Shown here piece by piece: positions 2,198 through 21,782 of a DNA stretch of 21,782 nt. Made by a program: the position numbers and the translations under genes. The DNA comes from Elsinoe ampelina. Its lineage: Eukaryota. Location: contig ML992505.1 of assembly GCA_010093995.1 (NCBI GenBank), positions 1,443,147-1,464,928 of the forward strand, given 5' to 3'. Positions within the stretch are counted from its first letter, which is position 1. Each line of letters opens with the position of its first letter. The notes under the pieces were generated by a model. That model saw nothing but the letters and a program-made list of their open reading frames with translations. It had not been told where the DNA came from and ran no database searches.

Positions 2198-2993
2198 TCA
2201 CCTCCCCACCACCACGTCCATCTTCCTCCCCTTCATCCTCTGCCTCGCCTCCACCACATCCCTCGTCGCCAACTGCGACTCCCTGCACCCCGCCGCCTTC
2301 CCCTCCCTCGCCAGCTTCTCTCTAACCACCACCAGCAGCAACTCTCTTGCCACAATGGCCGACTCCTTGCTCTCCCTCGCGAGCCACGACAAGCCCTCCA
2401 CCAAGGTCGACGACCACTGGGACACATCCTCTTCCGGGATGATGCGGCATGCGTTGCACCCCAGCTCGGGCGCGCGGTGGGCGGCACAGACGTGCCATTT
2501 CTTGGGATGGAGCTCGGGCACCATGATCACCGATTTCCAGTCCATACCCCAGGCTTGTTCGATGTGGGCGAGGCTGGCGGCGATCCTGGGCTTGAGGGTG
2601 GGCGGACCGGAGGGGGCGGAGGGGGCGGAGGGGCTGTCGGTCATTACTACCAGGTGGTCAGCGTGATTTGATGAACTTGACGTGGATGTTGGATACCTTC
2701 GTCTTGTTGAGGTATTGGAGGCGGAGGTACTACCAGGTCTGTGAGTATGGTCTTGCGTGAGTCTAGCAGGTGAAAGGTCTTACGGTCGGCCAGCGGATTT
2801 GGTGGCATTGGGTAATCGGTCGGCTGATCTTCATCGTATGAATTCCCTGCCAGCAATGTCAGTCATTTGTCGTTGCGAGCTGTTCCTGACGAGTTGCTGG
2901 TAGTATTTTCGCCGTGGAACTACCAGGTCTGGCGTTTGGGATTGAGAACTCACAGTACAGGTTATTCATGTCTCGCTGGAAGGGGTGCGACAT
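2198..2993 (-). CDS. Orphan protein A, unknown family, paralogue of orphan B. Predicted exons 2993-2954, 2846-2784, 2729-2697, 2646-2198; 194 aa.
   Basis: Three phase-1 introns (GTGAGT..CTGAC..CAG, 107 nt; GTAAGA..CTCAC..CTGGTAG, 54 nt; GTATCC..CTGAC..CTGGTAG, 50 nt) join into one open frame: MSHPFQRDMNNLYWNSYDEDQPTDYPMPPNPLADLPPPPIPQQDEVMTDSP...HIEQAWGMDW...WSSTLVEGLSWLA...LATRDV. The C-terminal domain aligns to ORF 7432-7788. An alternative in-frame acceptor exists at 2739. Confidence 0.75.
2608..2633. repeat. Short 9-bp tandem repeat (CGGAGGGGG) x about 3, encoding PSA repeats in orphan A
   Basis: cggagggggcggagggggcggagggg read directly. Confidence 0.7.
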
Positions 2994-3168
2994 GGTGCAG
3001 GAGAAGATGCAATGGTCGATAATTGGTTGTTTGAAGGTGCGTGCTGGTAGTATCTTGCGACGAGTGACTTCGTGAATGTGGCCAGCGAAAAGGTGAGAGG
3101 TGAGGTCGAAAATGAGATTGAAAGAAATGCCAAAATATAAAGTGCAGAATCGCCTGAAGTACTACCAG
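2647..3168. repeat. Dispersed heptamer cluster 1 (CTACCAG/CTGGTAG, 6 exact copies)
   Basis: CTACCAG at 2647, 2730, 2920, 3162; CTGGTAG at 2897, 3044. All six extend to ACTACCAG/CTGGTAGT. Confidence 0.9.
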
Positions 3169-4087
3169 GCACCCATCGTCCCTACGCCCTCTATTGTCAA
3201 GCCGCCTCCAACTATTGTTACCACAGTGACAATACAGGGGAGCATGTGATAGCACGTGAGAGCCAGGAATCGCAGGAAAAAAAGTGCAAAAATGAATGGC
3301 ACATGTTCGGAATCGCACATCGACGTTTGTGGTGACAGAGAGAATAGTCTCGAATATGAGAGTAAACCCGTTGAGTGAGAGCACGGTGTCGGAGAAAGGA
3401 ACGCTTGAGCTACAGGGGCGTTCATCTCGTGGATTCATTTGGGAAACCAGCGGCAAACAATAAATATATACCTTTCCATCTGCTCTGTGAGCCCACCCGT
3501 GCGCTTGACAAGTCCTCATCACATTGCACACTTCGAAACGTCATATCATACTTCTGAGTCGTCGGTCGATTGACATGATCATGATCAACAAGGAAATATG
3601 GAGAGTCTCTAACCTTCAGCGATTCTGGAACAGAATTCGCCACAGATTGTGTCACAAGGCAATTGGGCTAGTTTCGTATTGTCACAATTGATTTCATGAA
3701 GCAAGCACTGTCGATAATCAGTCTATTGAACATGGATGGTATTGTGCACTAGTCAATCGAGGGTATGCATGCTCCGGCAGTGACCAGCCCACATGTCTCT
3801 CGAACGAGTGCAACAATCGGCACATGTCACATGAGTCGGAAGCTAGTCGTTTTCACTTCTCCAGGATCTGAAGCATGGCGATTTGAGAATGCCAGATGGG
3901 ATCTTGGTGATTCTGCCGGATCGTGATGCAACGAAAGGATGGAGAGTTTGGCAGACGTCTGGCCAAGCACAAACCCCAACTCTGACAGAGCCGCATGCAA
4001 ACGTGCTGACTCAGCTTTGAGGCTTTCAATAACCTTGAATATAATTCTAATGTCTCTACAATCACACATCGACAACACTATGTAATC

Positions 4088-5790: not shown

Positions 5791-6865
5791 GATGAGCAAT
5801 TATCCTGTAGACTTTACGATCGCGCTGCTTGCGAGAGCTGCTTATCTTGAGTTGTCAACAGTGACCTGAGACGTCATGGCATTGTGTGAGAGGTGTGGGG
5901 CGCACCAGAAGCGGGGGAGCGGCCTGGTGGAACTTTCAGCTTCGACTTCATCCTTCCTTCATTCTCGCCACAATAGTCAAATATGGATCACAGGCAATAT
6001 GAAGGACTGAATTTTCTGTGAGCGGACATGTATGGTGATATCGTGATAGTTTTGATGATTTTTGTGGTGCTTCGATGTGATTGTGGCGTGCTGTGATGTC
6101 TCGTGTCCGCAGCAGGTTTGTGCTCATCTTCTCTTTGAACGCAATGAAATGGTTACCATCTCCTTCAGAGACATGGTGATAGAGCATCGAATAGACGAAT
6201 GGAACTGACATGGCCACTACACTGCAGAGTGTCTGCGCCCACGCCCGCATGGGCTGTCGGGCGCATGATGCCAAGTGTCGTCACATGTCAGTGAAGGTAT
6301 ATATATTTTATTAATTTATCTGATCTCCAAGAGAGGCGCGAATAGGGCTATGGAGCCTGAAAGTGCGGGTGAATGGTCTAGTGGGAACCAGCAGCACCAA
6401 TTGTGCGTGTACGGCTGTACCACCAAGACCCCGGGGTATTCACTCGTAGCATTTCACTGCGGTCGCAGCCGAAGCAGTCTCAAGAAAGCACCACCCATAG
6501 AGGTACCGCAGACGAGATTGTCCAAGCCAACACCGCGTCGATTCGTGGAGATGAGATCATTGCGCGCGGATGATCGACTCGAAGCTGACTTGTCGGCACA
6601 TGCGCCTCTCTTTTTTTGTCCGGTTCGACTCACGGACTGTCCTTCTTTTTGGGCATGTCACTTCACATATTGTGGACAGGAGGGGTAAGTTGACATGTGA
6701 CAGCACGCGTGAACCCGTGAAGCAGGCTACCAGCCACTCGCATTTTTGGTGGTGCGCACGGCATATTGTGAGTTCGCACTTGCGAGATTCTCTTCACCTT
6801 CCTCTCAGCATACCGACCATCCTCGCCTCCTAGATTACTACCAGAATCAATCAAATACTACCAGG

Positions 6866-7788
6866 ATGCCGAATCCTGTCTACCAAGATGCGCGCAATGC
6901 GTTGCGTAAGATGCACTGCACCTGGAGAAGCCGCGATGTGAGATCTGATTTTTCACACAGTCAACGGTCTGGCCTCCGGGTCAAAGAGGAAGAGGGAGGA
7001 AGAGCCTCCGGCTGCTGGTAGTTACAACGGCTCTATTCCTACCAGGCGCGGCTGGTCTGACTAGTATAGCAGTATCTGAGGGAGAGGGAGAGGCCGGCGG
7101 CCCCCCTGCAGAAGAAGGTAATACACCATCACGTCTGCAGATATCCTACCACGATGCTGACGACCTGGTAGTTTCTACTGGTGAGGAAGAGGCTGGCGGG
7201 TCCGCCTCCACAGAACAAGGTATGGCACCACCAATTTCACATTGTCGATCAACCTACCAGAATGCTGACGACCTGGTAGTACCCGAGGCCGAGGGTGGCG
7301 CTGGCGCCCCCTCCAACGAGCCCGCAGACGACGGTATTGCTCACCCCTTCTCATAATCATCCTACCAGCATACTGACGGCCTGGTAGTTTCCGGCGCGCC
7401 AAGCTCGAAGAAGCAGCGCAAAGACAACCGCGTGGTCGCAATGGACCACCTCCGTACCAACTGGGGAGAAGACTGGGTCGAGAAGGTCATGGACGACGAG
7501 ATCCTTCCGTGGGTGGCGACCGGCCCGGAGGTACTTGCTGGTAGGACCAGCGAGGGCAAATCCTACCAGACGGGCATTCGTTTGCTGAGGAATCCAGAGG
7601 AGTGGTCGACCTCCCTGGTAGTTGAGATGGCTTGGCTGGCGAAGAAGACGCCTGGGGAGCAGGAGAAGGTCAAGGGGATGCTCAAGAAGCAGTTGGGTGG
7701 CAAGCTGGAGGCGGAGGGATTCAAGGGTGGTGCTGGGTTGGTTTTGCTGGCTCCCAGAGATGTCAAGGCGGTGGTTGCTATGCTGTAA
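6866..7788 (+). CDS. Orphan protein B, unknown family, paralogue of orphan A, probably nuclear. Predicted exons 6866-6905, 6961-7017, 7073(or 7070)-7117, 7172-7219, 7280-7333, 7388-7788; about 214 aa.
   Basis: Five phase-1 GT-AG introns of 52-60 nt, each with a CTGAY branch site, give one open frame: MPNPVYQDARNALLNGLASGSKRKREEEPPAA-VSEGEGEAGGPPAEE-VSTGEEEAGGSASTEQ-VPEAEGGAGAPSNEPADD-VSGAPSSKKQRKDNRVVAMDHLRTNWGEDW...WSTSLVVEMAWLA...LAPRDV. KRKR and KKQRK are NLS-like. Confidence 0.8.
7073..7387 (+). repeat. Three degenerate tandem exon+intron units of about 100-108 bp inside orphan B
   Basis: Units 7073-7171, 7172-7279 and 7280-7387 each comprise an acidic/Gly exon ending GAAG/CAAG/GACG, a GTA donor, and an intron tail cctacca(c/g)-xat(g/a)ctgacg(a/g)c-ctggtag. 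Confidence 0.85.
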
Positions 7789-8103
7789 TTTGTGGTAGTT
7801 CATGAGCGAGAAATACTACCAGAGAACATGCCGGCGGGCTGTCGATTGTTGAAGACTCTACATACCATCCTTGCTATGTGCAGTGATTACTACCAGGACA
7901 CGAGAACTTCATGACAAGATCCGGGTCATTGGCCATCTTTCTGGTAGTACCAGGCGGAAACATCCTACCAGGCAAGTGACATGGTCTAGCACCAGTGACA
8001 TGAGATGGCTCATGAAATTAAGAAGTGACGGAGACTTCTGGTAATAACAGACGTGGCAATCCTACTAGGCCAGCTTCGGAGGAAGGGCAAGAACATATGT
8101 GCA

Positions 8104-21079: not shown

Positions 21080-21644
21080 GCTTGCTGAATAGTAAATCTT
21101 TGGACTGCCAGTCGTAGAAGATGTGAAAGTGATGAGTGGTGGTGAGGTTGAGGGCGTAGATTTTGTGTGGTGTCGACTGGTCGTTCTTTCCACATCTGAA
21201 TGCACGGGATGCAATTGTTACCGCGTGAGTGTGATGCTTGCTGAAAGTGAAATGGACAATCGTCACGTGTGAGACAGATGCCAATCGGTGATGTGAATAC
21301 TAGTGCTTGACAATCGGCAAACATGTGATACTTGTCAAGAAGGAGCTGGCCATCGAATGTCACTGGAAAGCGGGCATGGCAACACCACGCAAATAGACCG
21401 CCACATCCGCTGGAGTCATCGCGATGAGTAGGATGTGGTGGTGAGTAAGTCATTGGATTGTAGTCGAAGTCCGGTAGTAGAAGGGGTGGGCCAAACCTTA
21501 ATTTCGACATCACTTGTGTTGTAATGGAAGGCTGGTACAGCTTCTCTGGTACTGAAGAACTGGTACTGATGAGTCAGCGCACGCACAGTAGATAAATCGG
21601 TTATTGTAACTCTCTGAATAAAACACACGTCTCTCGATCCGATT

Positions 21645-21782
21645 TGCTAGTTATAACAGGTTATAAGCCCGGCGCTTCTACAAAAGCACTTAAAGCTATA
21701 GCAAATTAAGCGTGTTATTATTAAAAGGATTACTAAGCCGCCTATACTAAATTCTGGACTAGCTATATTAAGACAAACACTT
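21645..21782. repeat. Start of an AT-rich, RIP-like tract (probable inactivated repeat continuing beyond the window)
   Basis: In 21651-21782 I count about 21 TpA against about 11 ApT, only 2 TpG and about 6 CpA, an abrupt change from upstream composition. No element identity is readable. Confidence 0.55.

Follow-up and report, generated by a model that had tools for sequence, protein, structure and literature searches.

The window, that is, the whole stretch of 21,782 bp of Elsinoe ampelina contig ML992505.1 that was analysed, carries a small predicted gene on the forward strand, here called gene B, and a paralogue on the reverse strand, here called paralogue A. In what follows, F denotes the heptamer CTACCAG and R its reverse complement CTGGTAG, both read on the + strand. 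The genes and predicted introns are the following:

6866..7788, + strand: gene B, a six-exon model of 215 aa with predicted splicing, collinear with the E. batatas protein P0007
6866-6905, 6961-7017, 7070-7117, 7172-7219, 7280-7333 and 7388-7788, + strand: exons of gene B
7018..7069, + strand: predicted intron 2, with its donor GTAGTT inside a CTGGTAG copy and holding an R-N17-F pair (7015/7039)
7118..7171, + strand: predicted intron 3, 54 nt, in frame and stop-free, ending in CTACCAC-N12-CTGGTAG
7220..7279, + strand: predicted intron 4, 60 nt, in frame and stop-free, ending in CTACCAG-N12-CTGGTAG (7254-7279)
7334..7387, + strand: predicted intron 5, 54 nt, with an in-frame stop, ending in CTACCAG-N12-CTGGTAG (7362-7387)
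7018..7387, + strand: tandem exon-intron duplication, unit of about 101-114 bp (~108 bp), from a four-unit alignment
2198..3168, - strand: paralogue A, 28% identical to B (E 2e-10), on a basis that includes P0008

The 215-aa frame of gene B is open, and its product can be aligned over the full length with a protein of 210 aa predicted in E. batatas, which has no intron peptides (55% identity is listed for the last exon beside this collinearity), a comparison of one prediction with another that supports the proposed introns, of which 3 to 5 were modelled as GT..AG introns. Intron 2 has a tandem acceptor, TAG CAG, at 7069/7072, and the frame is kept with either. Contigs assembled from four runs, guessed to be RNA, include one that spans 7621-7793 and leave 6840-7373 uncovered, being uninformative on expression or splicing. 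The predicted protein has acidic repeats and a C-terminal helical domain, without a match in Pfam. For the domain encoded by the last exon a confident fold was predicted (pLDDT 85.6), which found nothing in the PDB at E 0.001, reached a best Z of 4.7 and, in the Atlas, had only matches scoring under 0.9 or with a TM under 0.5. Made with the product of gene B in mind as a candidate binder of the heptamer, these comparisons gave no clear structural match. A search for longer forms of the protein found none, which is weak evidence. Relatives are few (at E 0.001 there are 9 representatives, and those with a name belong to Elsinoe and Rhizodiscina), and judging from these homologs gene B is a small Elsinoe-centred gene. 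It has two paralogues inside 30 kb, so that an uncharacterised family with a W-G-x-D-W helical domain has three members there (2198-3000 and 6866-7788 of the window, and L018:1462-2295), interleaved with the conserved genes TMA16, HIT finger, rhomboid and GAA1; the HIT-finger protein near gene B groups with proteins of E. batatas and E. fawcettii.

Predicted introns 3, 4 and 5 of gene B had been described as ending in CTACCAC, CTACCAG and CTACCAG, respectively, each followed by 12 nt and CTGGTAG, and this was confirmed at 7146-7171, 7254-7279 and 7362-7387, with a CTGAC present in every one of the 12-nt spacers. The centres of the intron 3 arms lie 21 bp apart. The exact form CTACCAG-N12-CTGGTAG has two matches in the window, a number reached by none of 100 shuffles. 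The claim of a spacer of exactly 12 nt in three introns is true to the letter, but it describes a single event, the spacers being nearly identical and the introns tandem copies: introns 2-5 with their exons align as four copies of one unit, with a mean column identity of 59%. The three intron ends are thus copies of one exon-intron unit and are counted here once, as one evolutionary event. Compared with the genome, the region 6700-8100 matched itself only, in a search that may miss short or simple matches.

The word is by no means restricted to these introns, as 17 exact copies on both strands occupy positions 6727-7971, in both flanks of the gene as well as in introns and the last exon. The sites are distributed as follows (entries without strand hold sites in both orientations or have none assigned):

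6727..8068: whole site array of gene B, 17 exact and 5 near-exact copies
6838..6886, + strand: three direct copies, CTACCAG, CTACCAG and CTACCAA, around the start codon, with centres 20 and 22 bp apart
7538..7621: sites of the last coding exon, an R-N18-F pair at 7538/7563 (23 bp) and an R at 7615, 54 bp further
7792..8068: sites of the 3' flank, R-N17-F pairs at 7792/7816, 7941/7965 and 8038/8062, and an F at 7890

Two of the three R-N17-F pairs in the 3' flank include words with one mismatch. Counting neighbours along the array, 10 of the 21 gaps measure 20-23 bp, in all three orientations, and the other 11 measure at least 53 bp; five one-mismatch words were added by hand for this count, and 6 of the 10 short gaps involve exact words only. 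Paralogue A holds 6 exact copies, with one R-N16-F pair (2897/2920), and CTGGTAG ends two of its predicted introns, where the exact 5' arm is absent.

Across the genome, the heptamer shows a modest excess in number (3505 + 3626 copies, against 2520 + 2606 for the reversed control) and is clustered, with a variance-to-mean ratio of 3.6, compared to about 1 for four control 7-mers. Close pairs far exceed expectation in every orientation: 199 R-N5-30-F pairs (11.7 expected), 71 F-N0-30-R pairs (13.9 expected), 52 of which have spacers of 10-14, and 128 F-N0-30-F pairs (27.9 expected). Clustering alone does not explain this excess, because the equally wide band R-N31-56-F holds 17 pairs only. Spacers of 16-17 were found in 36 among the first 50 of the 199 RF pairs, and spacers of 11-14 in 52 among the first 100 of the 128 FF pairs. 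Taking the middle of the 9-mer TACTACCAG as the centre of a site, the median centre-to-centre distance is 22 bp for RF, 21 bp for FR and 20 bp for FF pairs (first 50 of 199, 50 of 71 and 100 of 128 pairs, respectively), that is, two helical turns whatever the orientation. The flanks of paired words show fixed base preferences, as in a weight matrix, and extend the putative site to a consensus of about W-R-D-W-M-CTACCA-S-V. Around long ORFs the strands are balanced (47/43 inside, 21/19 downstream), and a single word is clustered above chance and without strand bias, as in homotypic clusters of binding sites. Selected loci had given the impression of clusters located at 5' ends, but contiguous blocks did not bear this out and showed no 5' enrichment around long ORFs; the word is therefore not an ordinary promoter element. 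Its clusters frequently overlap ORFs that belong to no Pfam family.

Longer gaps follow the same helical rule. Beyond the main peak, neighbour gaps gather at 53 and at 73-76 bp, and a set of 102 gaps between 27 and 135 bp long, taken from 45 clusters, gave a best period of 10.7 bp (Rayleigh Z 14.9, matched by none of 2000 jitter nulls), with a phase near zero at 10.6 bp and agreement in phase among the orientations (FF Z 6.7, FR Z 4.4, RF Z 3.5). These values come from a selected sample: four blocks totalling 600 kb, three of which were placed so as to take in the window or clusters already known, and 33 further loci included for their close pairs. It is within this sample that whole-helical-turn spacing holds for all orientations. 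When one gap per cluster was kept, Z fell to 4.9 (p about 0.007), and the removal of tandem arrays and of the window led likewise to 4.9 (p about 0.007).

The word is also carried by mobile elements. A first MITE-like family (~250 bp, inverted ends of ~31 bp, 37 genome matches; L109-L120, G000:C2:173290-173640 and relatives) has an R-N17-F pair near each end, at a similar distance, in 9 of 12 aligned copies, the sequence between being different. A second one (~250 bp, CC..GG ends, 28 genome matches; L121-L132, G000:C2:360150-360480 and relatives), with inverted ends unrelated to those of the first, carries a single R-N19-F pair at its centre in 9 of 12 copies, and several of its copies show apparent 2-bp target duplications, judged by eye. 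Both pair counts used a loose pattern that permits C-to-T variants. Together, the two families hold 10 among the first 50 RF pairs; these 10 are not independent, and the other 40 lie outside both families. In addition, the word recurs in almost all units of unrelated tandem arrays with periods of about 18, 42, 72-75, 108 and 118 bp. In two of these, unrelated to each other (L047:6781-7809, ~118 bp period, and L055:807-1387, 72-75 bp), each unit has F-N7-15-R, and at L108:3583-4183 (G000:C2, about 2639.6-2640.2 kb), upstream of an IML1 gene, there are tandem exon-intron-like units in which R-N17-F forms the intron ends, mirroring the layout of gene B. Introner-like elements are near-identical introns spread through unrelated genes; this class was rejected for gene B, as the region matched only itself in the genome search, which may miss short or simple matches, and the copies are local tandem duplicates.

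Taken together, the pattern points to a putative DNA-binding protein and not to an RNA splicing switch. Judging from the arrangement of the sites, the arms are probably sites for a candidate sequence-specific factor that would bind the word on double-stranded DNA cooperatively and on one face of the helix, fitted into introns. Such a factor could be an oligomer whose DNA-binding heads are flexible, or a reader of rotationally positioned nucleosomal DNA. In gene B, a site pair would have been fitted into an intron 3' end, with CTGGTAG doubling as the YAG acceptor and the branch point lying in the spacer; the word suits intron ends because both its strands end in YAG, so that either strand can act as an acceptor. 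Duplication of the exon-intron unit in tandem would then have tripled the pair. The effect of the factor would most likely be to control young genes and element ends, either by stage or through chromatin. That young genes, intron ends and two transposon families all use the word suggests a host factor exploited by mobile elements. The word, its clustering, strand symmetry, spacing and phasing, and the duplication were observed directly, whereas protein binding, the nature of the protein and its effect are what we infer from these sites. A bolder version has a candidate chromatin factor polymerise on the phased word, mark young lineage-specific genes and unrelated transposon ends, and couple to RNA processing or DNA breakage, and we give it a rather small chance. 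If true, splice sites would be built within the sites of the factor and exon-intron units duplicated around them, in a sequence-encoded system to control and generate new genes.

The preliminary description had instead put forward a 6-7 bp pre-mRNA hairpin that displays the branch-point A and hides the acceptor AG, as a possible splicing switch. The stem itself is the predicted fold for intron 4, where the 7 bp have a pairing probability of ~0.99 (range 0.93-0.99), and partly for intron 5 (~0.6), but its probability in pre-mRNA context is 0 in intron 3, whose stem has 6 bp because its first arm reads CTACCAC; the z-scores for whole-intron folding are unremarkable (-1.4, -0.2, -0.6). A hairpin side effect on the splicing of gene B is possible according to these folding models, and the frame would be kept if intron 3 or 4 were retained. 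Some tie to splicing remains, since 10 of 48 RF pairs resemble intron ends with branch point and donor (background ~5%; several are MITE or tandem copies), and two loci, L008 and L108, show a mirrored layout of R, 16-17 nt with a branch-point-like word, and F giving a CAG acceptor. As the reason for the pattern, however, the switch found no support. The whole genome offers 6 instances of the layout F(S)..CTRAY..R, 3 of which belong to gene B; only 3 of 30 FR pairs resemble intron ends; and in genome blocks the rate at which the word looks like an acceptor does not exceed that of YAG in general (9 of 207 versus 4.4%; 5 of 207 versus 2.5%). The arms show no extra complementarity in their flanks that would extend the stem, either in 40 RF pairs (180 matches, 192 expected) or in 24 FR pairs (103 matches, 113 expected), in a test that compared loci of one genome, and CTACCAC, the partner variant seen most often (12 of 45), breaks one base pair. 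Conservation of pairing rather than of sequence, which would mark a regulatory RNA stem, was thus not observed among these loci. Moreover, direct repeats, which are unable to pair, show the same centre spacing as inverted pairs, and RNA pairing can yield neither direct repeats nor helical phasing. We consider the switch very unlikely. Its stated alternative, a palindromic operator for a dimeric protein, fared better in kind, as a protein site on DNA is what the data favour, but not in form: the words occur in three orientations and are helix-phased without a fixed palindrome, and in place of the one orientation and one spacer of a rigid dimer, spacers are 16-17 for RF, 10-14 for FR and 11-14 for FF pairs.

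Subterminal repeats bound by a transposase, or sites of a domesticated one, would make the gene arrays relics or co-opted copies. Short words in element ends are known from the subterminal transposase-binding repeats of En/Spm and hAT, which occur in mixed orientation, and from the inner IR/DR sites of Tc1, and the first MITE-like family resembles them, with words placed symmetrically within both ends at a similar distance and differing sequence in between. In contrast to those systems, the Elsinoe word is found in two element families with unrelated ends and mostly outside them, as 40 among the first 50 RF pairs are, and the genome search described above met the gene B region nowhere else. 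Because unrelated elements and genes have the word in common, a host factor fits better than one transposase, and we regard the transposase as unlikely. Alternatively, the word could mark sites of DNA breakage or recombination, comparable to minisatellite cores or PRDM9 sites, and promote local tandem duplications, from which repeated exon-intron units and young genes would arise. Its presence in nearly every unit of unrelated arrays and over ORFs without a Pfam family would agree with this; on the other hand, motifs of this sort are expected to erode, and selection for more sites explains the growth of arrays equally. The arms also share no flank beyond the word, because of which they are not templated copies of each other, and copying of this kind was rejected. 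A breakage motif is, in our view, quite unlikely. Finally, one intron end could have arisen by chance and been duplicated, the splice signals conserving its 3' half, in agreement with three introns that are tandem duplicates with near-identical spacers. This would not account for the presence of a 5' arm, for 14 further exact copies in gene B, or for the genome-wide pair excess and phasing; such a neutral by-product is largely refuted by the genome-wide counts and seems extremely improbable. Roles as an A-to-I editing context, in U2 pairing, or of Chi- or REP-like kind were dropped, the word being strand-symmetric and helically phased.

In filamentous fungi, few sequence words are known through which chromatin or stage-specific regulation is exerted across an entire gene body. 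A search of the literature for the word or its spacing grammar, with subscription journals mostly outside its reach, found no paper describing it, and the phased DNA word is apparently undescribed. A scan of metagenomes for a triple pattern returned 9 loci, none of which resembled a fungal cluster of this kind. The nearest likeness is the Nanog motif, copies of which occur at about 10.5-bp periodicity in all orientations, ascribed there to cooperative protein contacts or to binding of nucleosomal DNA (bioRxiv 10.1101/737981). Both systems have helically periodic copies in every orientation, whereas the Elsinoe word is stricter, its pairs two turns apart predominate over the few that are one turn apart, and its arrays, which lie on fungal genes, extend over introns, flanks and coding exons. 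Grainyhead/CP2 factors occur in fungi and have sites AACCGGTT or CTGG-N6-CTGG (PMC3348937, bioRxiv 10.64898/2026.04.16.719077). They share with our word the CTGG core and helically phased paired sites, but the word is non-palindromic, and a Grainyhead/CP2 site was rejected since no flank preference completes the palindrome AACCGGTT and the 10-bp direct spacing was seen in 1 of the 100 FF pairs listed. The intronic RNA stems described by Raker et al. 2009 (PMC2724269) mask splice sites, are locus-specific, at least 9 nt long and conserved across species, and had their pairs confirmed by compensatory mutation; the likeness lies in a complementary pair able to cover an acceptor, and the difference in that the Elsinoe word is a fixed 7-mer found genome-wide, on both strands and mostly off splice sites. 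The palindromes reported for MoIsw2 (PMC11481914) could be identical to our word.

A strict word with a spacing rule that is legible from the genome sequence alone offers a bait for capturing the putative factor. The case also calls for caution, as inverted repeats at intron ends may be DNA sites and not RNA switches.

Two further observations concern the rest of the window. Upstream of paralogue A, 70 bases at 3375-3444 are matched by another contig with 8 differences and unrelated flanks, in all four runs, and are possibly a dispersed repeat; Rfam gave no match over the whole window, these bases included. At the end of the window, the sequence at 21640-21782 becomes A+T-rich and TA-rich, which we take to resemble the edge of a RIP-mutated repeat.
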